The notes beneath the pieces were generated by a model. The model saw nothing but the letters and a program-made list of their open reading frames with translations. It ran no database searches and was not told where the DNA came from. From IMG/VR virus record IMGVR_UViG_2896595138_000006: a stretch of DNA of 12,498 nucleotides. One strand, 5' to 3'. Each line of letters opens with the position of its first letter. Positions within the stretch are counted from its first letter, which is position 1. A program made the translations under genes and the position numbers. The DNA is from a virus. Lineage: Duplodnaviria > Heunggongvirae > Uroviricota > Caudoviricetes. This document shows, piece after piece, positions 1 through 12,498 of this stretch.

Positions 1-795
1 GTGCCGGAACTGACCCGCAGGACCACGAGAGGCAAAAAAGAGAGACAGAGGCCCGAAGTCGAAAATGTGGCGGCGGCATGGTACCAGGTGAAAATCAGCC
101 AGAATCTGGCCGCCAACAGTGGGCTGATTGATGCCAATCCGGCTATGAATGTGCGTAAGGCGTTTCCCTCACCTGTAAAAAAACATATGCCAACAATCCG
201 CCCCGAACAGCTGCCGGAGCTTATGCAGGCTTTATCAGTATCGGCAACAGAACGGCAGACCAGATTACTGATTGAATGGCAGTTACTGACCGTAACCCGT
301 CCCGCCGAAGCGTCATCAACGCGGTGGGATGAAATCAACCTGGACGCGAAGCAATGGACGATACCTGCCGGACGCATGAAGATGCGCAGGGATCACGTTA
401 TCCCGCTTTCCGGTCAGGCTATGGCGGTGCTGGAGGCCATGAAACCAATCAGCCACCACCGCAATTACGTTTTCCCAAGTCTGAAAGACCCACAGCAGCC
501 GATGAACAGCCAGACCGCTAACGCAGCATTGCGGCGTATGGGATTCGCTGGCGTGCTGGTGTCTCATGGATTACGCGCCATATTCAGCACAGCAGCGAAC
601 GAGGAAGGATTCGAGCCGGACGTAATAGAGGCGGCACTTGCCCACGTCGACACCAACGAAGTTAGACGGGCATACAACCGGAGCAACTACATAGAAAAAC
701 GCATCGTGCTGATGCGCTGGTGGGGCGAATTTGTCGAGGCTGCGGCGACGGGCGTAACCCTCGCCAGTGGTAAAAGGGGTATCCGAGCCGTGTAG
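1..795 (+). CDS. int: Tyrosine integrase, P4-like family; C-terminal 264 codons only (5' end of the gene lies upstream of the window)
   Basis: Frame is open from base 1 to TAG at 793-795. Translation shows the catalytic-domain pattern of phage tyrosine recombinases (WDEINLD..WTIPAGRMKMRRDHVIPL, HGLRAIFSTAANE, LAHVDTNEVRRAYNRSNY). Recognised as P4/CP4-type integrase from memory; no search run. Confidence 0.9.
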   Translation: MPELTRRTTRGKKERQRPEVENVAAAWYQVKISQNLAANSGLIDANPAMNVRKAFPSPVKKHMPTIRPEQLPELMQALSVSATERQTRLLIEWQLLTVTRPAEASSTRWDEINLDAKQWTIPAGRMKMRRDHVIPLSGQAMAVLEAMKPISHHRNYVFPSLKDPQQPMNSQTANAALRRMGFAGVLVSHGLRAIFSTAANEEGFEPDVIEAALAHVDTNEVRRAYNRSNYIEKRIVLMRWWGEFVEAAATGVTLASGKRGIRAV

Positions 796-802
796 CTGTA
801 CA

Positions 803-837
803 GAAAACCAGTAAAAACTACGAAAACCATGTAAAAC
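803..837 (+). repeat. Two 16-bp direct repeats (GAAAACCAGTAAAAAC at 803-818, GAAAACCATGTAAAAC at 822-837), 19-bp period, immediately downstream of int
   Basis: Read directly; 15/16 identity. Lies just upstream of a TATAAT hexamer at 844-849. Function unknown (candidate protein-binding sites). Confidence 0.6.
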
Positions 838-872
838 CATCGTATAATTGCATCAAATTTAACGACAAGGCC

Positions 873-1124
873 GTGAAACATGAAACCGTTAAGATGCAAA
901 AAAATATCAGATGCAATTGCGACGGGCTGCAACTGGCCCTGATGGTTCAGCATGAATTTTGGTCAACCTACGATCCGGAGGACAGAACGACGGCCCCATC
1001 AAAAAAACAGGTAGTAGATTTTCTGGTATCCCGTGGCGCTTCCAGAAATCTGGCGGTAAGTATTGATAAGGTCGTACGTCCGGCATCTATGAAGATCGGA
1101 GGCAGGCCCCAAAAATGGCGGTAA
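873..1124 (+). CDS. Hypothetical small protein (GTG start at 873, or ATG at 894)
   Basis: ORF ends at TAA 1122-1124, followed 12 bp later by a strong intrinsic terminator. No convincing Shine-Dalgarno sequence for either start and no recognisable motif. Confidence 0.3.
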   Translation: MKHETVKMQKNIRCNCDGLQLALMVQHEFWSTYDPEDRTTAPSKKQVVDFLVSRGASRNLAVSIDKVVRPASMKIGGRPQKWR

Positions 1125-1135
1125 CAATCCTGGAA

Positions 1136-1158
1136 GCGGCAGAAATGCCGCTTTTTTT
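1136..1158 (+). terminator. Rho-independent terminator (GCGGCA-gaaa-TGCCGC followed by T7)
   Basis: 6-bp GC-rich stem 1136-1141/1146-1151, 4-nt loop, T run 1152-1158. Confidence 0.55.
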
Positions 1159-1270
1159 ATAATTCCATTTCAAATCATCAATATAAAAACGGTGGGAACT
1201 GTTTTTACCCATATCCGATGATTTACCGTATTTGTCACCGGAATACACCGGATTCACAAGGTAAATCACG

Positions 1271-1477
1271 ATGGAAGCAATCAGAAAAATTATCTTTCGC
1301 CAGGAAGTAAAAAAAATTATCCACATCAAGGCAGACAGCACGCTGCAAAGCATGATCAACGCCGGAGAATTTCCGCAGGGTTTTCGCGTTGGTTTACGCC
1401 GTCGCGGATGGTATGAGGATGATGTGTTGGCCTGGCAGAAAGAACGCGAACAGGAAGCACGCGGAACGGCTGCTTAA
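1271..1477 (+). CDS. alpA: AlpA-family (Phage_AlpA / excisionase-like) transcriptional regulator
   Basis: 68 aa. The pattern EV..I.....STL...I..GEFP.G...G.R..GW...DV..W matches the AlpA/MerR-like HTH fold as remembered. Position next to the integrase is typical of P4-like and PICI elements. Confidence 0.8.
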   Translation: MEAIRKIIFRQEVKKIIHIKADSTLQSMINAGEFPQGFRVGLRRRGWYEDDVLAWQKEREQEARGTAA

Positions 1478-1513
1478 CGGGTATCACAGATATGACAAAC
1501 ACGAAAAAAGCGG

Positions 1514-1526
1514 CCCCGATATGGAG
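1514..1526. repeat. Left copy of the 13-bp target-site duplication (CCCCGATATGGAG) flanking IS4
   Basis: Identical 13-mer at 1514-1526 and 2953-2965, directly abutting the IS4 ends. Confidence 0.85.
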
Positions 1527-2952
1527 TAATGCCGATCAGTTAAGGATCAGTTGACCGATCCAGTGGCTGTGTAAGAATCCGGAAACGCTCACTTGTTTCC
1601 GGATTTTTTTATGCACATTGGACAGGCTCTTGATCTGGTATCCCGTTACGATTCTCTGCGTAACCCACTGACTTCTCTGGGGGATTACCTCGACCCCGAA
1701 CTCATCTCTCGTTGCCTTGCCGAATCAGGTACTGTAACGCTACGCAAGCGCCGTCTTCCCCTCGAAATGATGGTCTGGTGTATTGTTGGCATGGCGCTTG
1801 AGCGTAAAGAACCTCTTCACCAGATTGTGAATCGCCTGGACATCATGCTGCCGGGCAATCGCCCCTTCGTTGCCCCCAGTGCCGTTATTCAGGCCCGCCA
1901 GCGCCTGGGAAGTGAGGCTGTCCGCCGCGTGTTCACGAAAACAGCTCAGCTCTGGCATAACGCCACGCCGCATCCGCACTGGTGCGGCCTGACCCTGCTG
2001 GCCATCGATGGTGTGTTCTGGCGCACACCGGATACACCAGAGAACGATGCAGCCTTCCCCCGCCAGACACATGCCGGGAACCCGGCGCTCTACCCGCAGG
2101 TCAAAATGGTCTGCCAGATGGAACTGACCAGCCATCTGCTGACGGCTGCAGCCTTCGGCACGATGAAGAACAGCGAAAATGAGCTTGCTGAGCAACTTAT
2201 AGAACAAACCGGCGATAACACTCTGACGTTAATGGATAAAGGTTATTACTCACTGGGACTGTTAAATGCCTGGAGCCTGGCGGGAGAACACCGCCACTGG
2301 ATGATACCTCTCAGAAAGGGAGCGCAATATGAAGAGCTCAGAAAACTGGGTAAAGGCGATCATCTGGTGAAGCTGAAAACCAGCCCGCAGGCACGAAAAA
2401 AGTGGCCGGGACTGGGAAATGAAGTGACAGCCCGCCTGCTGACCGTGACGCGCAAAGGAAAAGTCTGCCATCTGCTGACGTCGATGACGGACGCCATGCG
2501 CTTCCCCGGAGGAGAAATGGCGGATCTGTACAGTCATCGCTGGGAAATCGAACTGGGATACAGGGAGATAAAACAGACGATGCAACTGAGCAGGCTGACG
2601 CTGAGAAGTAAAAAGCCGGAGCTTGTGGAGCAAGAGCTGTGGGGTGTCTTACTGGCTTATAATCTGGTGAGATATCAGATGATTAAAATGGCGGAACATC
2701 TGAAAGGTTACTGGCCGAATCAACTGAGTTTCTCAGAATCATGCGGAATGGTGATGAGAATGCTGATGACATTGCAGGGCGCTTCACCGGGACGTATACC
2801 GGAGCTGATGCGCGATCTTGCAAGTATGGGACAACTTGTGAAATTACCGACGAGAAGGGGAAGGGCCTTCCCGAGAGTGGTAAAGGAGAGGCCCTGGAAA
2901 TACCCCACAGCCCCGAAAAAGAGCCAGTCAGTTGCTTAACTGACTGGCATTA
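1527..2952 (+). mobile_element. Insertion sequence IS4, complete copy (1426 bp)
   Basis: Terminal inverted repeats TAATGCCGATCAGTTAAG (1527-1544) and CTTAACTGACTGGCATTA (2935-2952), 16/18 match. The 1426-bp length and the 442-aa transposase agree with IS4 as remembered. Flanked by a 13-bp direct duplication. Confidence 0.92.
1611..2939 (+). CDS. insG: IS4 transposase (DDE family)
   Basis: 442 aa starting [16 protein letters not shown]. Matches the E. coli IS4 transposase essentially throughout, from memory. A hairpin plus T run (1577-1610) sits immediately before the ATG. Confidence 0.92.
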
Positions 2953-2965
2953 CCCCGATATGGAG
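2953..2965. repeat. Right copy of the IS4 target-site duplication (CCCCGATATGGAG)
   Basis: See left copy. Confidence 0.85.
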
Positions 2966-3280
2966 CCGCCTTTCTGAACAATTAACCCGCTGCGCCTTAT
3001 GTGTATGTGATCCCAAACATAAGCACGGGGATGATAGACGCTATCAGGCTGGTTCAGTTCGTTGCCATACCTGCAATGAGCGCGTTTCCCTGTACTCTTT
3101 AAGGAATTGCTCAAGGGCAAAAGCACATGGTGCGAATCTTTCTGATTCATGCTCGAGCGCCATATTTTCGTGCTCTCTGTTCGTTTTTTGCGATGGTGTA
3201 TTGGTTGATTCTTTGTTGGTCATTGTGTGTACCTGTAAAGCAATGCGCCGTAGCACCTCACGCCACGGCGCTGATAGTGA

Positions 3281-3478
3281 TTATTCTGATTCTTTGGCCT
3301 TCCTGCGCTGTTCATATTTTAATTTGCGTCCACAGGCATCTAAGACCCATGCGGAAAAATTAGCACTAGGATTAGTTAATTTTTCTTGTTCAACGCTGGC
3401 ATAAACCCCATCTATAAGCTCATGTGGGAATCGAATATTTTTCTTTGCTGATTTGTTGTTTGTGTTACCGCTAGACAT
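3281..3478 (-). CDS. Arc/Mnt-like ribbon-helix-helix DNA-binding protein (putative repressor)
   Basis: 65 aa. The segment NIRFPHELIDGVYASVEQEKLTNPSANFSAWVLDA resembles the beta-strand plus two-helix pattern of P22 Arc (..NLRWPREVLDLVRKVAEENGRSVNSEIYQRV..). Shine-Dalgarno GAGGT lies 6 nt before the ATG on the minus strand. Divergent from an operator-bearing promoter. Confidence 0.6.
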   Translation of the reverse strand: MSSGNTNNKSAKKNIRFPHELIDGVYASVEQEKLTNPSANFSAWVLDACGRKLKYEQRRKAKESE

Positions 3479-3505
3479 TGATGCACCTCACTTAAATGGA
3501 CTTTA

Positions 3506-3586
3506 TGGGCGCACACAATACAGCAAAAAAAATGAGATGTTAAGTATTGACATGTGCGCACACATGATTTTAATCTGTGCGCACAG
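3506..3586 (+). promoter_or_regulatory. Rightward sigma70-like promoter (TTGACA 3547-3552, 16-bp spacer, TTTAAT 3569-3574) with palindromic operators TGTGCGCACA at 3553-3562 and 3576-3585 and a 9/10 copy at 3506-3515
   Basis: Hexamers and perfect 10-bp palindromes read directly. One operator sits in the -35/-10 spacer and one at about +1; the third lies in the leader of the divergent RHH gene. Confidence 0.45.
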
Positions 3587-3846
3587 TTTGAGTTTTGTCA
3601 CTCAAATTAAGCAACGCCCCGCAGTGCTCGCAACACATGCAGGGCGTCTAACCACCAACGATAGCAACAGTATCGAGGTAGCTATGTTAAATCATACCAC
3701 ACACCTGCAAGGGCGGGACTCGCACAACCTGAATAAAGCGGGTATGAAAAACCAGTTGATCGCCACTGCCAGCCAAGGCTATGATTCGCGTGCACCTTAT
3801 AAAACGGGTGCCGGGATTAGGACCCCGCTGACAATCGAGGCGATAC

Positions 3847-3869
3847 AGACGCCGCACGCGTCTTTTTTT
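3847..3869 (+). terminator. Intrinsic terminator inside the rightward leader (AGACGC-cgcac-GCGTCT then T7)
   Basis: 6-bp stem 3847-3852/3858-3863, T run 3863-3869. Lies about 280 nt downstream of the promoter and before the first icd-like unit. Could define a leader RNA or an attenuator. Confidence 0.4.
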
Positions 3870-3931
3870 GTATCGACGCACACGCACACCTATACAATGG
3901 TGGGCTGTATGGGGCTACCTTCGGGTAGGCT

Positions 3932-4028
3932 GGTTCCCTTGATTGCCAGTAGTCCTAACCCTGTACAGTCCACCGCCAGCGAGCTTAGGACCTCCGGCGG
4001 TGGTTACATTCCATCAATCAAGGAGGCT
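3932..4028 (+). promoter_or_regulatory. Unit-1 leader element: anti-Shine-Dalgarno segment (3932-3945) complementary to the Shine-Dalgarno region (4015-4028) of the first icd-like ORF
   Basis: CCTTGATTG (3937-3945) is the exact reverse complement of CAATCAAGG (4015-4023), which overlaps the Shine-Dalgarno sequence AAGGAGG (4020-4026). Confidence 0.35.
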
Positions 4029-4034
4029 GCCGAC

Positions 4035-4223
4035 ATGGCTACTACCCCTACCCTTGTACATTCTCAAACAGCCTTTCTCTGGCGCTTTATCGCCTTTGGT
4101 GCGTCAGAGTCCCAAATCATCCACGTCACCGCCTGGACTGAACGCGAAGCGCGTAACCATTGCCCGTCCGGTTGTGTTGCTGTATTCGCGGCCCGTATTC
4201 GTCAGGGGGTTGGCCATGCGTAA
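4035..4223 (+). CDS. Small Icd-like/Ash-family protein (62 aa); a longer in-frame form could begin at ATG 3897
   Basis: Strong Shine-Dalgarno AAGGAGG 8 nt upstream of the ATG at 4035. Motifs FLWRF, TAWTEREAR and FAARIRQG are shared with the downstream paralogue. The family name is recalled from annotations of P4-like islands, not verified. Confidence 0.55.
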   Translation: MATTPTLVHSQTAFLWRFIAFGASESQIIHVTAWTEREARNHCPSGCVAVFAARIRQGVGHA

Positions 4224-4315
4224 AAACAACTTGCAAAAAATTACCGTGGGGCTGTATTCTTCCCCGTCGCCCACATGGCGACCGGGTTTGACAGCCTGAA
4301 TAGCAAAGCGGACAG

Positions 4316-4344
4316 CCGCTTACATTCCGATATGCGGTTTTTTT
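4316..4344 (+). terminator. Terminator-like hairpin plus T7 run between the two icd-like units
   Basis: CCGC (4316-4319) and GCGG (4334-4337) flank a 14-nt loop, followed by T run 4338-4344. An alternative tight hairpin GCGG-acag-CCGC lies at 4308-4319. Same position relative to unit 2 as the terminator at 3847-3869 has relative to unit 1. Confidence 0.3.
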
Positions 4345-4409
4345 GTGTCCGTAAACCTACCCATACCCGCATTATGGCGGGGCGTAACGGGGGAGCCTTT
4401 GCGCTCGCT

Positions 4410-4502
4410 GGTTTCTTTGCTGCCAGTCTGTCAACCCTGTTACGTCCCGCCACCATGTTTGACAGCGTGCTGGCGAGACTCCTTACATCAAGCAAAGGAG
4501 CC
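4410..4502 (+). promoter_or_regulatory. Unit-2 leader element: anti-Shine-Dalgarno segment (4410-4421) complementary to the Shine-Dalgarno region (4491-4502) of the second icd-like ORF
   Basis: GGTTTCTTTGCT can pair with AGCAAAGGAGCC over 12 positions (10 Watson-Crick plus 2 G-U), covering the Shine-Dalgarno sequence AAAGGAG (4494-4500). Confidence 0.35.
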
Positions 4503-4508
4503 TTTCAC

Positions 4509-4682
4509 ATGGCTGTATCCGCACGCCCTTACTTTGTCTGGCGCTTTATGCAGTGCCTGACAGACAGCATTGCAATATTCACCGTTACCGCAGCCACTGA
4601 ACGCGAAGCCCGCGCGCAGCTGCCGCACGCACATCTGATTTTTGTCGCCCGTATTCGCCAGGGGGAAACCTATGCACAATAA
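4509..4682 (+). CDS. Small Icd-like/Ash-family protein, paralogue of 4035-4223 (57 aa); a longer in-frame form could begin at ATG 4374
   Basis: Shine-Dalgarno AAAGGAG 8 nt upstream. Shares WRF, TEREAR and ARIRQGE motifs with the upstream copy, with DNA-level similarity across the unit. Confidence 0.55.
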   Translation: MAVSARPYFVWRFMQCLTDSIAIFTVTAATEREARAQLPHAHLIFVARIRQGETYAQ

Positions 4683-4893
4683 AACCACACCGGACGCAGC
4701 CGCCGCCGCACTCACTACGCTGATGCACGCGCTTATTGATATTGAATGCACAGCAGAGCTTGCACGAAAGGAAGAACGGGAAGAATACACATTGTTCGCC
4801 CTGGAATGTATCCGATACATCGCAACGCGGTCGCTGAATGACGCTAAAAATATTCTTGTTGCTGATTGTGAAAATGGGGGGTGCCCCTATTAA
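4672..4893 (+). CDS. Hypothetical protein (73 aa)
   Basis: Start overlaps the stop of the preceding ORF (ATGCACAATAA), suggesting translational coupling. GGGGGAA lies upstream. Stop is 13 bp from the end of the IS110-family recombinase gene, so the 3' end may have been altered by the insertion. Confidence 0.45.
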   Translation: MHNKTTPDAAAAALTTLMHALIDIECTAELARKEEREEYTLFALECIRYIATRSLNDAKNILVADCENGGCPY

Positions 4894-4906
4894 GTTGTCA
4901 AGCATG

Positions 4907-6103
4907 TTATGACCCCTGCGGGGTATAAAAAGTCCCGTCGCGCATCATGGCGAACAGAACGTCGCAGCGTCGTCTCGCCAGGGCGATAAGCGCCTGATTG
5001 TGTCGTTTTCCCTGACTCATTTTGCGGGTGTAGTAAGCCCTGGAGAGCGGATCCCTGAGCGCGGCGAAGGCCAACAGGAACAACGCCCGTTTGAGAGCTT
5101 TATTACCCCGTCGCGAGGGATGCTCACCGCGTATTGACGAGCCGGATCGCCGAGTTACCGGCGCAAGGCCAGCATAAGCAGCGAGATGTGCGGCAGAGGC
5201 GAAGGCGCGGCAGGCGACCTCGGTGAGGAGTCTGGCTGCGGTCCTGACACCGACTCCGGGCATACTGGTCAGGACCGGGTAAAGAGGGTGAGCAAGAACT
5301 CGCTGTTCTACCTCAAGCGCCACCTCGTCTCTTTGCTTACGCAGCGTGATGAGCTGGAGTGCCAGACGTGGCAGTACTACGGCAGCGGCATTCGTGCCGG
5401 GAACGACGACGGTTTGTTCGGCCAGTGCCTGAGCTATGTCTGCTGCAAGGCGTTTACCCAGACGAGGCGCAAGTTTGCAGAGCTGGGCTGCCAGCTTCTT
5501 CTCACCCAGCGAAGCGAGTTTTTCTGGTGAGGGATATCGCTGGAGAAGATCGAGTACCGCCGGGTGCTCAAGTCTCGGACCGAGAACGCGCTCCAGTGCC
5601 GGATGTATCTGGGTCAGAAGGCCGCGGAGACGGTTGCTGGCCTGCGTTGTCTGTGCGGCAAGATCATCATCGAAGCCGCAGAGCATGGAGAGTTCGGCGA
5701 TTTGCTCGTCAGCCAGTTTCAGCGTGCGTAGCGCGTGAGGCAGGGTACGGGCAGCTTCGGCAATGATGGCAGCGTCACGAGCATCAGTTTTAGCTTCACC
5801 GGCGTGTAAGTCGGCTATGCGGCGCATGGCCAGTCCAGGGAGGTATCCGACAAGGACTCCTTCTGAGCGGGCAACGGCGACAGGTAACGCACCGATGGTA
5901 GCTGGCTGATCAACAACCAGCAGTATCTGACCATGTTGTTTCAGGTCAGATATTAGCGACCTGAGTTTGTTTTCGTCGTTGGGTAATGCTTTATCGAACA
6001 GGCGTTTACCTGAACGATTAATGGCAACAGCGTGATGCGTATCTTTACCGACATCAACGCCGATAAAGACCTGGACGGATTCGTAATCGCTGGATTCGGT
6101 CAT
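4907..6103 (-). CDS. IS110-family transposase/recombinase (N-terminal DEDD RuvC-like domain plus C-terminal Transposase_20 domain)
   Basis: N-terminus VFIGVDVGKDTHHAVAI and C-terminal LTSMPGVGVRTAARLL...AAYAGLAPVTRRSGSS are the hallmark motifs of IS110-family enzymes. Shine-Dalgarno AGGGAG lies 5 nt before the ATG on the minus strand. Confidence 0.9.
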   Translation of the reverse strand: MTESSDYESVQVFIGVDVGKDTHHAVAINRSGKRLFDKALPNDENKLRSLISDLKQHGQILLVVDQPATIGALPVAVARSEGVLVGYLPGLAMRRIADLHAGEAKTDARDAAIIAEAARTLPHALRTLKLADEQIAELSMLCGFDDDLAAQTTQASNRLRGLLTQIHPALERVLGPRLEHPAVLDLLQRYPSPEKLASLGEKKLAAQLCKLAPRLGKRLAADIAQALAEQTVVVPGTNAAAVVLPRLALQLITLRKQRDEVALEVEQRVLAHPLYPVLTSMPGVGVRTAARLLTEVACRAFASAAHLAAYAGLAPVTRRSGSSIRGEHPSRRGNKALKRALFLLAFAALRDPLSRAYYTRKMSQGKRHNQALIALARRRCDVLFAMMRDGTFYTPQGS

Positions 6104-6330
6104 TCTGTCTCCCTTGTATATGGGTTAACCAGATAACCACGGGGAGCAGGTACCGGCATCCACGTTACAGACGGTCCCGGCAAAAGTGCCTGACCTGACC
6201 CCTATTAGCGATTACCAGCGCCCCACCAGACCCGGTGACATCACCCCCGGATCATGGACGACTGGGGGCAGTAATCATGCCGGGTCTGGCTGGCTAACAC
6301 CCCATTATAAGGGGTACGAATAAAGTAACG
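6104..6330 (-). ncRNA. Candidate bridge (guide) RNA region of the IS110-family element
   Basis: The non-coding 5' flank of the recombinase contains a 10-bp perfect inverted repeat CCAGACCCGG (6226-6235) / CCGGGTCTGG (6280-6289) enclosing a CCCCC/GGGGG inner stem, plus a further hairpin at 6299-6315. IS110-group elements are known to encode a structured RNA here. Not folded or searched. Confidence 0.3.
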
Positions 6331-6335
6331 GGGTT

Positions 6336-6569
6336 ATGCGTGATATTTACATTGAAATAACAGACCGCGCATTTCTTGCACTTTCTCACAGTGAAAATAT
6401 GTTGGAAATATTGCAAATGTGTCTGGAAACATTTGGCGATAATGAGCGTGATAAACAGAAATCAAGGATTGTCACGGCATTAATAACGCTTCTTGAGCCT
6501 GTAATAAATGAGTTGCAGGAAATAGAGACATTACACGACCAGTATAAAGCGCCCCACACCGGAGAATAA
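6336..6569 (+). CDS. Hypothetical protein (77 aa)
   Basis: ATG start with a weak GGGG upstream. Predicted helical, no recognisable motif. Lies immediately beside the probable IS boundary. Confidence 0.4.
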   Translation: MRDIYIEITDRAFLALSHSENMLEILQMCLETFGDNERDKQKSRIVTALITLLEPVINELQEIETLHDQYKAPHTGE

Positions 6570-6574
6570 AAATA

Positions 6575-6670
6575 ATGAAACTTAAATATCCTGGCTTAAC
6601 TGCCAGCGGCAAAACTCGCACTAAATTCATGCGCGGGATATTTACCGCGATAAGTACGGCGGCACGGTAA
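6575..6670 (+). CDS. Hypothetical small ORF (31 aa)
   Basis: Shine-Dalgarno GGAG lies 10 nt upstream of the ATG. Too short to judge. Confidence 0.25.
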   Translation: MKLKYPGLTASGKTRTKFMRGIFTAISTAAR

Positions 6671-6681
6671 TAATTAAGGGC

Positions 6682-6873
6682 GTGGAGGAACGGCGCGTAA
6701 CCTACCGTCGTGAAGGCTACGAATATGATTGCGTGATGCCTGTTTATCAGTTCGACCGTGATTTTTCTCTTGTGCAGGCCGTACCGCGTAACGTGCCCAC
6801 CAGCAGGGAGAAAGCACGCGCCAATATTCAGGAAATAAAAAAGATGCTTAACGTATTCAGGGGTAAAAAATGA
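6682..6873 (+). CDS. Hypothetical protein (63 aa, GTG start), translationally coupled to the primase gene
   Basis: Its stop overlaps the primase start (ATGA at 6870-6873). Upstream Shine-Dalgarno spacing is poor, so the start is uncertain. Confidence 0.35.
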   Translation: MEERRVTYRREGYEYDCVMPVYQFDRDFSLVQAVPRNVPTSREKARANIQEIKKMLNVFRGKK

Positions 6874-8624
6874 AACTGGCACCGAACGTAAAAAAACAGC
6901 CACGCGGAATAAAACACAAAGACACAGAGGTAATTATCTTTGCGGGTAGTGATGCCTGGGCACACGCGAAACAGTGGCAGGAACATGACGCGCGTACAGC
7001 CGGAGATAATGAGCCTCCTGTGTGGCTTGGAGAGCAGCAGCTATCCGAACTGGATAATCTGCAAATTGTGCCGGATGGCAGAAAATCAGCACGCATATAC
7101 AGAGCCGGACATCTTGAGCCTGTAATGATCAAGGCGATTGGTCAGAAGCTGGCGGCGGCAGGTGTACAGGATGCAAATTTTTATCTTGAGGGTATGCACG
7201 GCCAGGAGGTGCAGAACTGGCGCGAATATCTGGCCCGTGAACGCCAGAATCTTTCTGATGGTCTGGTCATTGAGCTTCCGGTAAAGCAAAAGGCGCAACT
7301 TTCGCAGATGGCAGACAGTGAGCGCGCACAGATGCTTGCTGGTCGATTTGATGGCGTTTGTGTGCATCCGGAAAGTGAAATCGTTCACGTATGGCGCGGC
7401 GGGATATGGTGTCCGGTCAGCACAATGGAACTGAGCCGCGAAATGGTGGCGGTTTATTCAGAACACGGGGCCACATTCAGCAAGCGGGCAATTAATAACG
7501 CCGTTGAAGCGTTAAAAGTTATTGCTGACCCGATGGGCGAGCCGTCCAGTGATTTGCTACCGTTCACTAATGGTGTGCTTAACCTGAAAACGGGGGAATT
7601 TTCCCCGCACACGCCGGAGAACTGGATCACCACGCACAACGGCATTGAGTACACGCCACCAGCACCAGGGGAGAATATCCGCGACAACGCGCCAAACTTT
7701 CATAAATGGCTTGATCACGCAGCCGGAAAAGACCCGCGCAAGATGATGCGCATATGTGCCGCGCTTTACATGATTATGGCGAACCGGTACGACTGGCAGA
7801 TGTTTATTGAGGCCACCGGAGACGGCGGGAGCGGTAAAAGTACATTCACACACATAGCCAGCCTTCTGGCAGGGAAACAGAACACGGTAAGCGCTGAAAT
7901 GACATCGCTTGATGATGCTGGTGGACGTGCGCAGGTTGTCGGGAGTCGTCTTATCGTCCTGGCTGACCAGCCGAAATATACAGGCGAAGGAACGGGCATC
8001 AAGAAAATCACGGGCGGCGACCCCGTGGAAATTAACCCGAAATATGAAAAGCGTTTCACGGCGGTAATCAGGGCGGTGGTGCTGGCGACCGACAACAACC
8101 CGATGATATTCACCGAACGGGCCGGAGGTGTGGCACGTCGTCGCGTGATTTTCCGTTTCGACAATATCGTCAGTGAGGCCGAAAAAGACAGGGAGCTACC
8201 GGAAAAGATTGCGGCTGAAATCCCCGTTATTATCCGCCGATTGCTGGCGAACTTTACCGACCCTGAGAAGGCACGGGCTTTACTACTGGAACAGCGTGAC
8301 GGTGATGAAGCACTGGCAATAAAGCAACAGACGGATCCGGTTATTGAGTTTTGCCAGTTCCTGAATTTTCTGGAGGAAGCGCGCGGCCTGATGATGGGTG
8401 GCGGTGGTGATTCAGTGAAGTACACGACCAGGAACAGCCTTTACCGCGTCTATCTGGCGTTTATGGCATACGCAGGCAGGAGCAAACCGCTAAACGTAAA
8501 TGACTTTGGCAAGGCTATGAAGCCTGCCGCAAAAGTTTACGGACATGAATATATTACGCGGAAAGTTAAGGGGGTAACGCAGACTAACGCAATAACAACA
8601 GACGAGTGCGACGCGTTTTTATAA
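6870..8624 (+). CDS. Primase/helicase, phage P4 alpha-like (D5-N-type plus SF3 helicase domain)
   Basis: 584 aa. Walker A motif ATGDGGSGKSTF and the surrounding pattern (IVLADQP, VLATDNNP) match the P4-family primase C-terminal helicase domain as remembered. The N-terminal 200 aa are consistent with a Toprim-like domain. Followed by the iteron cluster. Confidence 0.88.
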   Translation: MKLAPNVKKQPRGIKHKDTEVIIFAGSDAWAHAKQWQEHDARTAGDNEPPVWLGEQQLSELDNLQIVPDGRKSARIYRAGHLEPVMIKAIGQKLAAAGVQDANFYLEGMHGQEVQNWREYLARERQNLSDGLVIELPVKQKAQLSQMADSERAQMLAGRFDGVCVHPESEIVHVWRGGIWCPVSTMELSREMVAVYSEHGATFSKRAINNAVEALKVIADPMGEPSSDLLPFTNGVLNLKTGEFSPHTPENWITTHNGIEYTPPAPGENIRDNAPNFHKWLDHAAGKDPRKMMRICAALYMIMANRYDWQMFIEATGDGGSGKSTFTHIASLLAGKQNTVSAEMTSLDDAGGRAQVVGSRLIVLADQPKYTGEGTGIKKITGGDPVEINPKYEKRFTAVIRAVVLATDNNPMIFTERAGGVARRRVIFRFDNIVSEAEKDRELPEKIAAEIPVIIRRLLANFTDPEKARALLLEQRDGDEALAIKQQTDPVIEFCQFLNFLEEARGLMMGGGGDSVKYTTRNSLYRVYLAFMAYAGRSKPLNVNDFGKAMKPAAKVYGHEYITRKVKGVTQTNAITTDECDAFL

Positions 8625-8636
8625 TTTTTTGTAATT

Positions 8637-8855
8637 GCTGTCTACCTGAGCAAAGGAAAATACATTTAATTCAGTACATTAAGTTAGGTAGACAGCTTTT
8701 TTTTACTGTCTACCCACTATCTACCCTCTCTACCTGATTTTACCTGAATCAGACAGGGAGGTAGACACGGGGTAGATAGTGGATAAAAACACTCTACCCC
8801 GCTGAAAGCCGCGCCATTACTGGCATGAGGGCCAGCAAGGTAGATAAGGTAGACA
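8637..8855. repeat. Iteron cluster, probable replication origin (ori/crr-like): about 10 copies of the octamer TGTCTACC / GGTAGACA and close variants
   Basis: TGTCTACC at 8639-8646 and 8707-8714; TATCTACC at 8718-8725; TCTCTACC at 8727-8734; GGTAGACA at 8687-8694, 8760-8767 and 8848-8855; GGTAGATA at 8771-8778 and 8839-8846; partial copies at 8738-8744 and 8793-8799. An 11-bp perfect inverted repeat (8637-8647 / 8686-8696) flanks an AT-rich 38-bp spacer and is followed by a T8 run. The octamer resembles the P4 alpha-binding repeat TGTTCACC. Confidence 0.65.
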
Positions 8856-8902
8856 AGGGGAGGCACAACTCAAAACTTTTTAAACGAGGGGTAAAAATAA
8901 AC

Positions 8903-9064
8903 ATGCACACTTCAGGAAAATTTAATAAATCACTCAAAAAACGCAGAGACAGAACAGAACCGAAATATCGCGCGTTAGACATGACAGAGCACGCTTTAAA
9001 GGTGGCAATCAGAACGATAGACCGCCACGCGGGGAAGGATACGCGAAGGAACATCCCGACCTGA
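8903..9064 (+). CDS. Hypothetical small basic protein (53 aa)
   Basis: ATG at 8903 with GAGGGG about 12 nt upstream. Lys/Arg-rich. The 5' part of the longer ORF in the track overlaps the iterons and was trimmed. Confidence 0.3.
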   Translation: MHTSGKFNKSLKKRRDRTEPKYRALDMTEHALKVAIRTIDRHAGKDTRRNIPT

Positions 9065-9176
9065 TAAGCGCATTCATGACCACAGCAGCGGCAAACTTTG
9101 CCACGCTGACAGAACGGGAGATTGCCGAAGCGGAACAGGTAACAACCATCAACGTTAAAACCGGAGAGGTGGAATC

Positions 9177-9587
9177 ATGACAGCACAGATAGCAGCTTAC
9201 GGACGGTTGGTGGACGACCCGCAGGTAAAACAGACCAGCAAGGGCACACCGATGACGCTGGCGCGTATGGCGGTATCGCTGCCATGCAGCCAGGCACAGG
9301 ACGGACAGGCGACGTTATGGCTATCGGTGATGGCATTTGGTAAGCAGGCCGACTTCCTGGCTAAACATCAAAAAGGCGACGTTGCCAGCGTATCCGGCAC
9401 GATGCAGGTCAGCCAGTGGACCGGACAGAACGGGGAAACGCGGCAGGGTTATCAGGTTATTGCCGACAGCGTAATCAGTGCCCGAGCGGCACGCCCTGGC
9501 GGGAACAGACGCAAAACCACAGGCACACAGGGTAATCAGCCACCAGCGGGAGACGATGACCCCTACGGTGATGATATTCCGTTCTGA
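9177..9587 (+). CDS. ssb: Single-stranded DNA-binding protein (SSB), phage/plasmid type
   Basis: 136 aa. OB-fold pattern (G.L..DP.V.......P..LA......WLSVMAFGKQADFLAKH.KGD...V.G......W....G..R.G) followed by a Gly/Gln-rich linker and the acidic tail DDDPYGDDIPF characteristic of SSB. Shine-Dalgarno GGAGAGGTGG upstream. Confidence 0.85.
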   Translation: MTAQIAAYGRLVDDPQVKQTSKGTPMTLARMAVSLPCSQAQDGQATLWLSVMAFGKQADFLAKHQKGDVASVSGTMQVSQWTGQNGETRQGYQVIADSVISARAARPGGNRRKTTGTQGNQPPAGDDDPYGDDIPF

Positions 9588-9595
9588 ACGCACAG

Positions 9596-9617
9596 GCCGG
9601 AGAAAATCCGGCTTTTT
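9596..9617 (+). terminator. Rho-independent terminator after ssb (GCCGGA-gaaaa-TCCGGC followed by T5)
   Basis: Stem 9596-9601/9607-9612, T run 9613-9617. Confidence 0.6.
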
Positions 9618-9623
9618 GTACCC

Positions 9624-9667
9624 AAAAAAAGCCCGATAAGTACAGGAGGAAGCTTATCGGGCTTTTG
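9624..9667. terminator. Second, probably bidirectional terminator (A7, 11-bp perfect stem AGCCCGATAAG / CTTATCGGGCT, T4)
   Basis: Stem 9630-9640/9653-9663 with a 12-nt loop, an A run on the 5' side and a T run on the 3' side. Confidence 0.5.
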
Positions 9668-9740
9668 CTTACGAGGTTAACAGCATGGTGACTACTGTTG
9701 TCGTAAATCATTTCATAATTTGCAATGCAACTCAATTCTA

Positions 9741-9797
9741 TTGCACAAAATGCAACTATGATTATAATTATAACTGGATGTACATCCAGTTATAATT
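9741..9797 (+). promoter_or_regulatory. Promoter of the head module (TTGCAC 9741-9746, 16-bp spacer, TATAAT 9763-9768) overlapped by a 32-bp perfect palindrome operator (9766-9797)
   Basis: AATTATAACTGGATGTACATCCAGTTATAATT is perfectly self-complementary about the 9781/9782 centre and overlaps the -10 hexamer and start region. Direct repeats TGCAACT lie at 9725-9731 and 9751-9757. Confidence 0.5.
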
Positions 9798-9824
9798 TTT
9801 TAAGTCGAAAAGGAATTTCTGACT

Positions 9825-10031
9825 ATGACAGAAGAGAAAAAAGGCGGGGTGACAGTTTACATAAGCCCCGATATCGTGGAGGCGCTCAAGGAACGCCACC
9901 AGCAGAACGTAAAAGCGGGCATTGCGGCAGGACTTGATCCGCTGGCGATGGTTGAGCCGTCAACAGGCTGGCAGGTACGCGCCTATTTACGTGCGGCGCT
10001 TGGCATGAATCAGACTCATGAGGGTGAATAA
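9825..10031 (+). CDS. Hypothetical protein (68 aa), first gene of the head module
   Basis: AAGGA lies 10 nt upstream. Stop overlaps the capsid gene start (TAATG), suggesting translational coupling. No recognisable motif. Confidence 0.5.
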   Translation: MTEEKKGGVTVYISPDIVEALKERHQQNVKAGIAAGLDPLAMVEPSTGWQVRAYLRAALGMNQTHEGE

Positions 10032-11086
10032 TGGCAGACAAAGCAACGGCACTTAACACTAACCAGCTTTTCGCGTACCTGAATCGCGGGGATATCCCGG
10101 AATTTAAATTCAGTCCGCTGTTTACCACGCTGTTTTTCCCGAAAGTAGCAACCTTCAACACACAAGATGTCATGCTGGATACCCTGGACATTGAAGAAGT
10201 CACCATGTCGGCGTTTTGTTCGCCTGTGGTGGGTAGCCAGGTTCAGCGTGATAAAGGGTACGAAACAAGCACTATCCGCCCTGGCTACATGAAACCCAAA
10301 CACGAAATCGATCCATCAAAAACCATCATGCGCATGGCTGGAGAAGATCCGGCACTGCTTAACGACCCCACCTGGCGACGTATGCGCCTCATTACTGGCA
10401 ACATGCGCCGCCAGATAAACGCCATTAAAGCGCGTGTGGAATGGCTGGCAGTGAATGCGGTCACGACCGGAAAAAACATCATTGAAGGCGAAGGCATAGA
10501 ACGCTATGAAATCGACTGGAATATGCCGGCAAACTGCATTGTCCATCAGGGGCCAGGAAAAAAATGGTCTGAGCAGAATAAAGAGACGCATGATCCGACA
10601 GATGACATCGAGCTATACGCCGAACAGGCCAGCTGCCCCGCCAACGTCATGATTATGGGCGCTGACGTATGGCGCACCTTACGTAGCTTTAAAAAATTCC
10701 GCGAGCTGTACGATCTTTCCCGTGGTTCAGAATCCGCCGCAGAGCTGGCGTGTAAAAACCTGGGCGAAGTGGTGAGCTTTAAAGGCTATCTGGGTGATCT
10801 GGCCCTTATCGTCTATTCCGGCAAATACACCGACAGCGACGGCACCGAAAAATATTTCCTTGAGCCTGATTTGCTTGTCCTGGGCAACACCAGCAATAAA
10901 GGTCTGGTGGCCTATGGCGCGATTATGGATCCGGAAGCGGTAAGAACGGGCGCAACGCAAAACATGTACTACCCGAAAAACTGGATTGAGAGCGGCGATC
11001 CGGCGATTGAGTACGTGCAGACGCACAGCGCACCGCAGCCGGTTCCGGCAGATATCCGCAAATTTGTTACTGTGAAAATTGGTTAA
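10031..11086 (+). CDS. Major capsid protein, lambda gpE-like (Phage_cap_E family)
   Basis: 351 aa. Multiple blocks align by eye with lambda gpE: FKFSPLFTTLFF, PGYMKPKHE, HDPTDDIELYA, LRSFKKF, LGEVVSFKGYLGDLALIVYSGKY, LVLGNTSNKGLVAYGAIMD, YYPKNWIESGDPAIEY and QTHSAPQP. Shine-Dalgarno GAGGGTGA upstream. Confidence 0.9.
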   Translation: MADKATALNTNQLFAYLNRGDIPEFKFSPLFTTLFFPKVATFNTQDVMLDTLDIEEVTMSAFCSPVVGSQVQRDKGYETSTIRPGYMKPKHEIDPSKTIMRMAGEDPALLNDPTWRRMRLITGNMRRQINAIKARVEWLAVNAVTTGKNIIEGEGIERYEIDWNMPANCIVHQGPGKKWSEQNKETHDPTDDIELYAEQASCPANVMIMGADVWRTLRSFKKFRELYDLSRGSESAAELACKNLGEVVSFKGYLGDLALIVYSGKYTDSDGTEKYFLEPDLLVLGNTSNKGLVAYGAIMDPEAVRTGATQNMYYPKNWIESGDPAIEYVQTHSAPQPVPADIRKFVTVKIG

Positions 11087-11097
11087 CGGGAGATTCT

Positions 11098-11401
11098 ATG
11101 GGCACTCCATATGTTGAGTTATATGCAGGCACACAGCAGGTTGCCACGACGCTGGTACATTTTTCCGCTGATGCTGGCGGACAATGGCGAGTTTAAGGCG
11201 TGGGATGGTCAGGAATCTGGCAAGGCTGTTTATCTGACGGCGTACCCCGTGGACACGTCAAAGCAGAAATCAGCACAGTGTTACAAGACGGGGATATTTA
11301 ATATCGCCGCCGTTAACTGGCCCGAGAGCGTCGACACCGACGCGAAAAAATGCGCCGCTTTTGCGGGTTCTGGCGTATCCGTTCAGCCACTGGTGCGATA
11401 A
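11098..11401 (+). pseudogene. Head decoration protein, lambda gpD / phage 21 SHP-like, with an apparent +1 frameshift in a T5 run (11160-11164)
   Basis: Shine-Dalgarno GGGAG lies 6 nt before ATG 11098, and that frame stops at 11194-11196. The gpD-like sequence continues in the +1 frame to TAA 11399-11401 (PLMLADNGEFKAWDG...YKTGIF...WPESVDTDAKKCAAFAGSG versus lambda PLMLDTSSRKLVAWDG...YKSGTF...WPEAASDETKKRTAFAGTA). Deleting one T from the T5 run gives a continuous 100-aa gpD-like ORF. Confidence 0.6.
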
Positions 11402-11413
11402 GCAGGGGGAACG

Positions 11414-11827
11414 ATGGCAATCAATGAAGCTATCATGGCGCTACCGCTGGCGAGTAAATTTAAAGCCGAAGCGCGGGCAATGGCGGACAGAGGTTTATCA
11501 ACCTACGAGGCTATATATCAACTTAACAAACTGGAAGAGCAGGACAAGCCGCGCACTGATGCGATTATGGCGCTTCATGAATCTGACGACTATCAGCCGC
11601 TGTTACGTGCAATGGCAAACGTGCCATGTATTAGCGTCGATAATGCCCGGGAAATCCTGAACATGACCATAGAGCAGGAACGCCCGAAGGTTGCGCCGGA
11701 GCTTACCGCAGCCTTTGAAAACTTTATGGACATGCACAGCCCGCAGGCCGTAAGCCCTGGCATGGCATACGATGGCAGATATCAGGGTGATGACGGCGAA
11801 ATCGATCGCATACTGAAAACCATCTGA
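11414..11827 (+). CDS. Hypothetical acidic protein (137 aa) in the head module
   Basis: Shine-Dalgarno AGGGGGAA upstream of the ATG. Followed directly by a strong terminator. No recognisable motif; predicted largely helical. Confidence 0.6.
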   Translation: MAINEAIMALPLASKFKAEARAMADRGLSTYEAIYQLNKLEEQDKPRTDAIMALHESDDYQPLLRAMANVPCISVDNAREILNMTIEQERPKVAPELTAAFENFMDMHSPQAVSPGMAYDGRYQGDDGEIDRILKTI

Positions 11828-11833
11828 GAAAAG

Positions 11834-11857
11834 GCCGGAGAAATCCGGCTTTTTTTT
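11834..11857 (+). terminator. Rho-independent terminator (GCCGGA-gaaa-TCCGGC followed by T8)
   Basis: Stem 11834-11839/11844-11849, T run 11850-11857. The stem sequence is nearly identical to the terminator at 9596-9617. Confidence 0.65.
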
Positions 11858-11932
11858 GCGGGTCCTTCCGGTGGGGTGGCCTGCCACGGGGCGGGAGCGG
11901 CGCAGAATTTCACTATTTATGAAAATTTTTCG

Positions 11933-12035
11933 GAAACCATGTCCGGTTTCTCTGAAGGTTAACCATTTGAAAAATATAGAAATGCGCTTTCTGCGAACCG
12001 GACATGCGCAAAAATTGAACACTCAAACCGGACAT
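11933..12035. promoter_or_regulatory. Three copies of an 11-bp motif AAACCGGACAT (one inverted) upstream of the last gene
   Basis: ATGTCCGGTTT at 11939-11949 (inverted, inside the GAAACC-N6-GGTTTC dyad 11933-11950), GAACCGGACAT at 11995-12005, AAACCGGACAT at 12025-12035. The last two are 30 bp apart. Confidence 0.4.
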
Positions 12036-12113
12036 ATATGCCGCGTTTCATAAAGTTGTTCGCAAGATGCATGTTTAAAACGCATGAGGGGAGATTTTTG
12101 GGCGAGGTGAACA

Positions 12114-12498
12114 GTGGCTACTCAGACTGAAGTTGCCAGGCATTTGAGTCTGACCGATCGCCAGCTTCGCAGATTACAGAAATTGTTCCCCCATCACTAT
12201 GGAAACCATAACCATGACCGACGCCGAACTACTGAAAGTAATCCGCCGTATTACCGGAATCTGTCAGGCAACAGGCAAACAGGTGGCCACGCAGCCGGAC
12301 AGCGTCACCGCTGAAAATTACGCGCGTGTGGTGGCTGAGGTGATGCGCCGTGACGGTATTGAGCTTAACGGCGTGGATATGCGCAACATACGAACAAGAG
12401 TCCTTGAGTTGCTGGCATATCGTCGCCGTTCTCAACAACGGAGGGAGAGCGCGAAAAATACTTACCAGTGGAGGAAGCCGGAGCACTTACGGCGGTAA
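12114..12498 (+). CDS. Putative HTH-type DNA-binding protein (possibly small-terminase-like or a regulator), apparently frameshifted at a C5 run (12188-12192); alternatively an independent ORF 12214-12498
   Basis: GAGG lies 6 nt before GTG 12114. The N-terminus ATQTEVARHLSLTDRQLRRLQKL looks like a helix-turn-helix, but that frame then becomes low-complexity and stops at 12314. The +1 frame (12199-12498) reads as a normal protein and ends exactly at the window end. Deleting one C from the C5 run fuses the two into a ~128-aa ORF. Confidence 0.4.

Follow-up and report, generated by a model that had tools for sequence, protein, structure and literature searches.

What does a 32-bp perfect palindrome do at the start of the capsid operon of a phage satellite, and which factor reads it? 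The question is raised by a stretch of 12,498 nucleotides (IMG/VR record IMGVR_UViG_2896595138_000006), referred to as the window hereafter. The original prediction, made from the letters of this DNA, considered the palindrome an operator with the geometry of a LexA box, but expected a dedicated repressor, encoded by the island or its helper phage, to be its more likely ligand.

The island and its truncated head module

By gene content, the window is a phage-inducible chromosomal island (PICI) of the EcCICFT073/EcCIEDL933 type. Pfam and PHROG annotations reveal an integrase gene (int), an alpA-like gene, a primase/replication module and a module of capsid E and decoration D proteins. Positions 31-12498 are 100% identical to CP026845.1, where the island is flanked by a yejM-like gene on one side and an autotransporter/narP/ccm region on the other. 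DNA identity amounts to ~87-88% with the island of E. coli CFT073 (locus L002), which is EcCICFT073 itself, and to ~81% with the O157 island (L003), which is of the EcCIEDL933 type. EcCICFT073 is known to encode a capsid (c1499) and a decoration protein (c1500) (PMC6092414). The part of the window that precedes the capsid genes is composed as follows:

1-795: partial integrase
1271-1477: AlpA-like gene
1593-2939, plus strand: IS4-family transposase
3453-4223: Ash-family protein
4907-6103, minus strand: IS110-family transposase
6870-8624: P4/D5 primase
9177-9587: single-stranded DNA-binding protein (SSB)
9627-9666, plus strand: strong terminator hairpin after ssb (repeat finder, terminator scan; fold of -22.1 kcal/mol, z -4.6)

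The IS4 and IS110 elements interrupt the early region of the island; additional IS66 and IS3 insertions are found in its sister copies elsewhere. This IS load and the accession series may indicate a Shigella host. Just past the primase gene, an inverted repeat is found whose 16-nt arms are separated by 43 nt (TACCCACTATCTACCC / GGGTAGATAGTGGATA; 8711-8785); PICI replication origins have been described at such a post-primase location (PMC6092414). The terminator after ssb, which is accompanied by a second, smaller hairpin at ~9597-9622, shields the capsid promoter from the replication module. The operon itself comprises four genes:

9825-10031, plus strand: 68-aa ORF, first gene of the operon (phrog_3255; PHROG)
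10031-11086, plus strand: major capsid protein, lambda E-type (Phage_cap_E; Pfam E 1.5e-48)
11111-11401, plus strand: head decoration protein, lambda D family (Pfam E 9.4e-15)
11414-11827, plus strand: 137-aa protein (phrog_1999), weakly similar to the C-terminal part of a head maturation protease

The original prediction referred to these genes as a head module. The capsid-type genes are indeed present, but the module is truncated in this island, as neither a portal nor a terminase gene occurs before the chromosomal flank. Because the island ends soon after a 94-aa ORF (12214-12498; 67% identical to the last gene of EcCICFT073) without these functions, it is a short EcCICFT073-type island rather than a full capsid-forming PICI. 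After the 137-aa gene, the last of the operon, come a terminator hairpin and a cos-like region. The latter contains a lambda-like cos sequence (GGGGCGGGAGCGGCGCAGAATTTCACTATTTATGAAAATTTTTCGG; ~11886-11930) and three CCGGACAT/ATGTCCGG repeats (11940-11950, 11997-12006 and 12027-12036), while EcCICFT073 carries the lambda-type GGGCGGCGACCTCGCGGGTTTTCGCTATTTATGA at the equivalent position. With this cos located ~2 kb downstream, a role of the palindrome as cos or packaging site was rejected. EcCICFT073 additionally encodes an RppC homologue (L002 11260-12134; PDB 6hlk, E 5e-31), in place of which the window has a shorter, unrelated segment at 11830-12213. Membership of rpp in the regulated operon was rejected as well, since the homologue lies beyond the terminator and cos in EcCICFT073 and is absent from the window.

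Islands of this kind are common in E. coli. A 500-bp region has matches of 81-93% identity in 568 of 5426 complete E. coli genomes, and a 49-nt probe spanning the -10 hexamer and the palindrome occurs in 596 of the 5426 (~11%), at 683 places. Only two E. coli plasmids match the promoter region. IMG/VR contributes 80 capsid loci. Two contig scans of species-representative genomes, one with the capsid protein and one with the pattern TATAAT-N5-CTGGAT-N3-CATCCAG, returned no matches.

A palindrome over the predicted capsid promoter

The region between ssb and the operon contains the following elements, some of which overlap:

9720-9730, unstranded: second copy of the repeat below, TTGCA-A-TGCAA, upstream of the -35 region (alignment)
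9741-9755, unstranded: inverted repeat TTGCA-N5-TGCAA across the -35 and spacer (alignment)
9741-9746, plus strand: putative weak -35 hexamer TTGCAC, with a 3/6 match and a 16-nt spacer to the -10 (read from the sequence)
9763-9768, plus strand: putative -10 hexamer TATAAT within GATTATAAT, conserved in box-bearing lineages (alignments)
9766-9797, unstranded: 32-bp perfect palindrome (sequence, repeat finder, shuffles)
9772-9791, unstranded: predicted LexA-type SOS box, 20-mer AACTGGATGTACATCCAGTT (matrix score, shuffles, motif-compatible drift in orthologous islands)
9796-9801, plus strand: T6 run directly 3' of the palindrome, with terminator-like geometry (terminator scan, RNA fold)

The palindrome (AATTATAACTGGATGTACATCCAGTTATAATT) is exact. 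Its two arms (9766-9781 and 9782-9797) count 16 nt each, are 100% complementary and have no spacer between them, as the repeat finder confirmed. Three further elements of the original prediction hold at this level: the palindrome shares the last three bases of TATAAT, its core consists of CTG (9774-9776) and CAG (9787-9789) separated by 10 nt, with G and C at the fourth positions, and its length is not expected by chance. When the window was randomised 400 times with a first-order Markov model, the arms of the longest perfect palindrome ranged from 5 to 11 nt (mean 6.75), compared to 16 nt in the real window. The palindrome is hence real and non-random. The perfect 32-bp form is specific to the lineage of this island (seven of 118 collected loci, among which some contigs are counted twice). 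In most relatives, the palindrome measures 28 bp and has a 2-nt centre, or its outer arms are imperfect.

The LexA likeness was quantified, as the original prediction had proposed, with a symmetric weight matrix built from the 18 E. coli boxes printed in PMC3009722 (Table 4). The inner 20-mer AACTGGATGTACATCCAGTT scores 21.6 bits, with a heterology index of ~6.3 that was recomputed from the 18 sites and not taken from the table of Lewis et al. In a leave-one-out comparison, this score exceeds those of recA (20.4 bits), sulA (20.0), cho (19.4), lexA (19.1) and ruvA (18.4), which places the 20-mer in the upper-middle part of the range of the 18 published boxes (6.6-27.6 bits). A score this high has a probability of 2.2e-8 per position, corresponding to 2.7e-4 expected sites per window, and was reached in none of the 400 randomisations. 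The site thus combines a CTG-N10-CAG dyad, a length of 20 bp, an AT-rich centre and a score within the E. coli range. The G and C at the fourth positions, which the original prediction had counted as a departure from the SOS consensus, are no defect for LexA, because ruvA (CGCTGGATATCTATCCAGCA) and cho (CACTGGATAGATAACCAGCA), both UV-induced E. coli genes, carry CTGG-N8-CCAG boxes too (PMC3009722 Table 4) and the site itself scores well. The half-site CTGGAT/ATCCAG is the one of ruvA, and the score is comparable to or better than those of the ruvAB and cho boxes. These, however, control chromosomal repair genes, whereas the island box is part of a longer palindrome carried by a mobile element. 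Taken together, positions 9772-9791 are probably an operator for the host LexA protein at the start of a satellite capsid operon.

The placement of the box is in line with such a role. It starts 3 nt past the conserved TATAAT and 34 nt ahead of the ATG at 9825, so that the operator-like position given in the original prediction is borne out: the box directly follows a conserved -10 at the head of the capsid operon. TATAAT presumably acts as a promoter -10; its context GATTATAAT varies to GATTAAAAT in meta_L135 and to GATTAAAATATAAT in Edwardsiella. The TTGCAC hexamer scores below the threshold of the promoter scan. All lineages examined have kept the TTGCA/TGCAA repeats, even where the LexA box is missing (alignment). 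The repeats match no known motif that we recognised, and an activator or another regulator, perhaps AlpA, probably binds there. Given the weak -35 and the conservation of these repeats, the promoter probably also needs an activator from the island or the helper. A sigma-54 promoter within TTGCAC-N4-TGCAA was rejected, as the G-to-G spacing counted on the sequence is 9 instead of the consensus 11 and no GG is present.

Two further observations concern the same region. In the E. coli islands, the -10 lies inside a palindrome of its own, (A/C)TGATTATAATCA(T/G), found at 9759-9774 in the window and at ~9157-9170 in EcCICFT073. The ends of this palindrome co-vary (AU in 8/21 and CG in 7/21 distinct sequences) and its right arm is shared with the main palindrome, whose outer left arm it forms. 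Because of this shared arm, three TGATT/AATCA elements could pair alternatively. In E. coli SCU-171 (L005 ~1480-1500), a 34-bp deletion between ATGATT direct repeats has removed the -10 and the entire palindrome; the island of this strain holds several frameshifted genes.

Variation of the box across islands

The comparison set comprised 118 E. coli-type loci with 34 distinct versions of the region, not all of them independent, as some IMG/VR contigs were fetched twice. Across the 118 loci, the core CTGGAT[GA][AT][AT]CAT[CA]CAG is constant and the five flanking bases on each side vary; the ten distinct 20-mers all score 16.1-22.1 bits. More distant islands were found through homologues of the 68-aa ORF. 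Their 20-mers occur at the same place after GATTATAAT and score 17.7-22.0 bits, with forms such as CTGGAT..ATACAG, CTGGAT..GTCCAG and CTGTATATAAATTCAG that remain within the LexA motif. The diverged boxes include:

Salmonella (L128): GACTGGATAAATATCCAGAT, 18.1 bits, outer symmetry lost
Metagenomic island (L134): GACTGGATGCACATACAGTT, 18.0 bits
Pluralibacter (L130): AACTGGATGTTTGTCCAGTT, 17.7 bits, shifted 14 bp downstream
L138 and L139: CACTGTATATAAATTCAGTT and TACTGTATATAAATTCAGTT, 19.7 and 22.0 bits, with the canonical CTGTAT half-site and the CTGGAT/ATCCAG palindrome gone

CTG and CAG are unchanged in all 15 distinct orthologous boxes. The 17 substitutions observed in the box cost on average 0.98 bits, compared to 3.21 bits for all possible substitutions, a difference matched by none of 20,000 random sets, albeit uncorrected for phylogeny. 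A recurrent change from CCAG to ACAG breaks the palindrome and approaches the LexA consensus. As substitutions stay cheap on the matrix while palindrome and hairpin decay, it is the LexA motif rather than the palindrome that is conserved. The box is widespread, yet not universal among the islands compared: two lineages (Edwardsiella L132/L133 and L135/L137) lack it, with the small ORF and the promoter elements upstream still in place. In Edwardsiella tarda (L132 6001-12213), which belongs to the former lineage, the trio of small ORF, capsid and decoration genes is immediately followed by a second, complete head module (portal, S49 protease, D, E and FI), resulting in two capsid E and D pairs in tandem.

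This variation bears first on the repressor that the original prediction preferred. An island-encoded factor, for instance the 68-aa protein as an autoregulator of the ribbon-helix-helix (RHH) type, or a helper-encoded one may bind the palindrome, in which case the likeness to a LexA box would be incidental. The symmetry does extend over 32 bp, past what LexA reads, and the outer arms show paired changes (CATAA/TTATG, CACAA/TTGTG, CAGGA/TCCTG, TATAA/TTATA), with three pairs changed on both sides and a covariation score reached by none of 500 shuffles. The 68-aa ORF has sub-threshold Pfam matches to RHH_1 (E 0.21) and BrnA (E 0.13) at residues 9-23 and a beta-alpha-alpha structure model (pLDDT 78), a model that yielded no significant PDB or fold match. 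An operator of this protein should be kept or co-vary with it across lineages. Instead, the site drifts within the LexA motif in diverged islands where the palindrome is not kept, while the N-terminal strand of the protein is near-invariant even where the box differs in sequence or is absent. Moreover, the same box is found in islands with different integrases and primases (P4/D5, DUF927, RepA), with or without PerC; its occurrence alongside such differing modules suggests a factor that all hosts share. The original prediction had suggested looking for the palindrome in helper prophages. A search of phage records with the promoter region returned only chance AT-rich matches to Pelagibacter phages and thus lent no support to a helper prophage carrying it. 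Within IMG/VR, AACTGGATGNACATCCAGTT has 36 exact matches, all of them on contigs of small size (4-14 kb, except for one of 50 kb) and all in this promoter context, where the ribosome-binding site of the operon comes after the box, and no non-satellite viral contig carries the element. A dedicated repressor is therefore unlikely, and based on the matrix score, the drift within the LexA motif and the lack of a phage carrier, we rank direct LexA control above it, reversing the order of the original prediction.

A second alternative is that the palindrome mainly acts as a hairpin in RNA, either as an intrinsic terminator (a 14-bp stem followed by T6) against read-through from the replication module or as a 5' stem-loop of the mRNA. 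Like a Rho-independent terminator, it forms a stem-loop followed by a T run. The terminator scan flags 9766-9797 with its tail, the RNA fold reaches -15.4 kcal/mol (z -5.2) and -17.7 kcal/mol in EcCICFT073, and the paired changes in the outer arms occur along with some G-U-compatible variants. Unlike such terminators, however, its stem is AU-rich, with only three G-C pairs, and overlaps a -10. Since the -10 lies at the left arm, a transcript from ~9775 would be without that arm and could form a stem of only 5-6 bp, and two good terminators already follow ssb. The structure also decays where the LexA motif persists: z amounts to -0.6 in Salmonella and -0.9 in Pluralibacter, and the interiors are unpaired in L138 and L134. 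In 9 of the 21 distinct sequences, pair 16-37 does not form, and the change from CCAG to ACAG disrupts a central G-C pair. A hairpin as the main function is accordingly improbable, somewhat more so than a dedicated repressor.

LexA binding to the inner 20 bp leaves 6 bp of additional symmetry on each side and the paired changes in the outer arms without account. The covariation of these arms is real but modest. It is conceivable that the extension to 32 bp has no function and is a mutational by-product, such as template switching within a quasi-palindrome, which in AT-rich DNA would have perfected the arms on both sides of a symmetric operator. Mutation by quasi-palindrome correction is well established. 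Only the lineage of the window is perfect over 32 bp, with many imperfect intermediates among its relatives, and the 34-bp deletion in SCU-171 between ATGATT repeats shows that the region is locally unstable. On the other hand, a by-product does not account for the invariant core and its LexA score. As an explanation for the 32-mer it is very improbable; it concerns the outer arms only and is compatible with a LexA operator within them. Template-switch correction, a second factor or a secondary role of the hairpin are all possibilities for the outer symmetries. A further, improbable reading is a dual-use device: as duplex, the palindrome would be a LexA operator at +1, and in read-through RNA a terminator whose left arm contains the -10 and +1. 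Read-through transcripts would then be stopped and promoter-started ones would escape, with selection for insulation keeping the outer arms.

Predicted SOS control of a satellite capsid operon

If LexA is the ligand, a bound dimer would cover the predicted transcription start at ~9775 and would thereby block initiation. SOS genes under tight control typically have a LexA box overlapping the transcription start (PMC8072944). As long as the DNA of the cell is undamaged, the operon for the 68-aa, capsid, decoration and 137-aa proteins would be off. During the SOS response, RecA-stimulated self-cleavage of LexA would free the capsid promoter, and the same signal induces resident helper prophages.

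Published work on EcCICFT073 reports that induction of the island itself is SOS-independent and that expression of alpA depends on the helper and not on SOS. Capsids of EcCIEDL933 have been produced by overexpressing AlpA with arabinose alone (published PICI work). As AlpA alone yields capsids, LexA cannot be an absolute gate, unless replication of the island titrates LexA or induces SOS. Combined with the helper dependence of alpA, this suggests that LexA would modulate the system instead of being its master switch.

A second candidate box lies near the other end of the window:

794-813, unstranded: second LexA-like box AGCTGTACAGAAAACCAGTA (16.9 bits, 0.0076 expected per window), predicted function

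It overlaps the stop codon of int and is located upstream of AAAACCA repeats (805-840), a TATAAT (843-848), an 83-aa ORF and the alpA-like gene. Related contigs carry this box at the equivalent position. Where the integrase is of another type, the islands have TACTGTTTTTTTATACACTG-like sites between int and alpA, with CAC instead of CAG as right half. The reported SOS independence of alpA argues against a strong role of this box, at least for the CFT073 version.

Several known systems resemble the predicted control. Gifsy antirepressors and tum of coliphage 186 are LexA-repressed prophage genes. The dinI homologues of Gifsy are known to be regulated by LexA in Salmonella (PMC8072944). Similarly, the island would be a mobile element that directly uses the LexA of its host to time expression with DNA damage. 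The prophage genes trigger induction, however, whereas the island target is a structural capsid operon. The closest parallel is operon I of the staphylococcal islands (SaPI), their packaging module, which is LexA-controlled according to Ubeda et al. 2007 as cited in PMC5052747. As predicted for the window, a satellite there has its capsid and packaging module, 3' of the replication origin, under the SOS repressor of the host, separate from the helper-dependent master switch. The two cases differ in phylum, and the Gram-positive LexA box is not CTG-N10-CAG. Their master switches differ as well, being an activator (AlpA) in the E. coli islands and a repressor (Stl) in SaPI. LexA control has been demonstrated experimentally for SaPI operon I, while that of the present island is predicted.

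The Gram-negative PICI literature describes control by AlpA and helper phages only. In the searchable PICI literature (capsid-forming PICI preprints and EcCICFT073 papers), neither LexA control nor a promoter of the capsid module is mentioned; in searchable work on Gram-negative PICIs, LexA appears only in citations of SaPI studies, and the exact box sequences are absent from the searchable literature. A LexA layer would be hidden from view because nearly all PICI experiments use mitomycin C.

EcCICFT073 and the capsid-forming EcCIEDL933 are the prototypes of Gram-negative phage satellites. An SOS box on the morphogenesis operon of such a satellite would be an unreported control layer, although not a new kind of mechanism. 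If the prediction is correct, the capsid genes would remain silent until DNA damage, convergent with SaPI operon I, and lexA alleles or mutations in the box would separate induction of the island from capsid production. Should the dual-use device and the box next to int/alpA also prove true, SOS would constitute a second, host-supplied checkpoint of Gram-negative PICIs, reached in convergence with the SaPIs.
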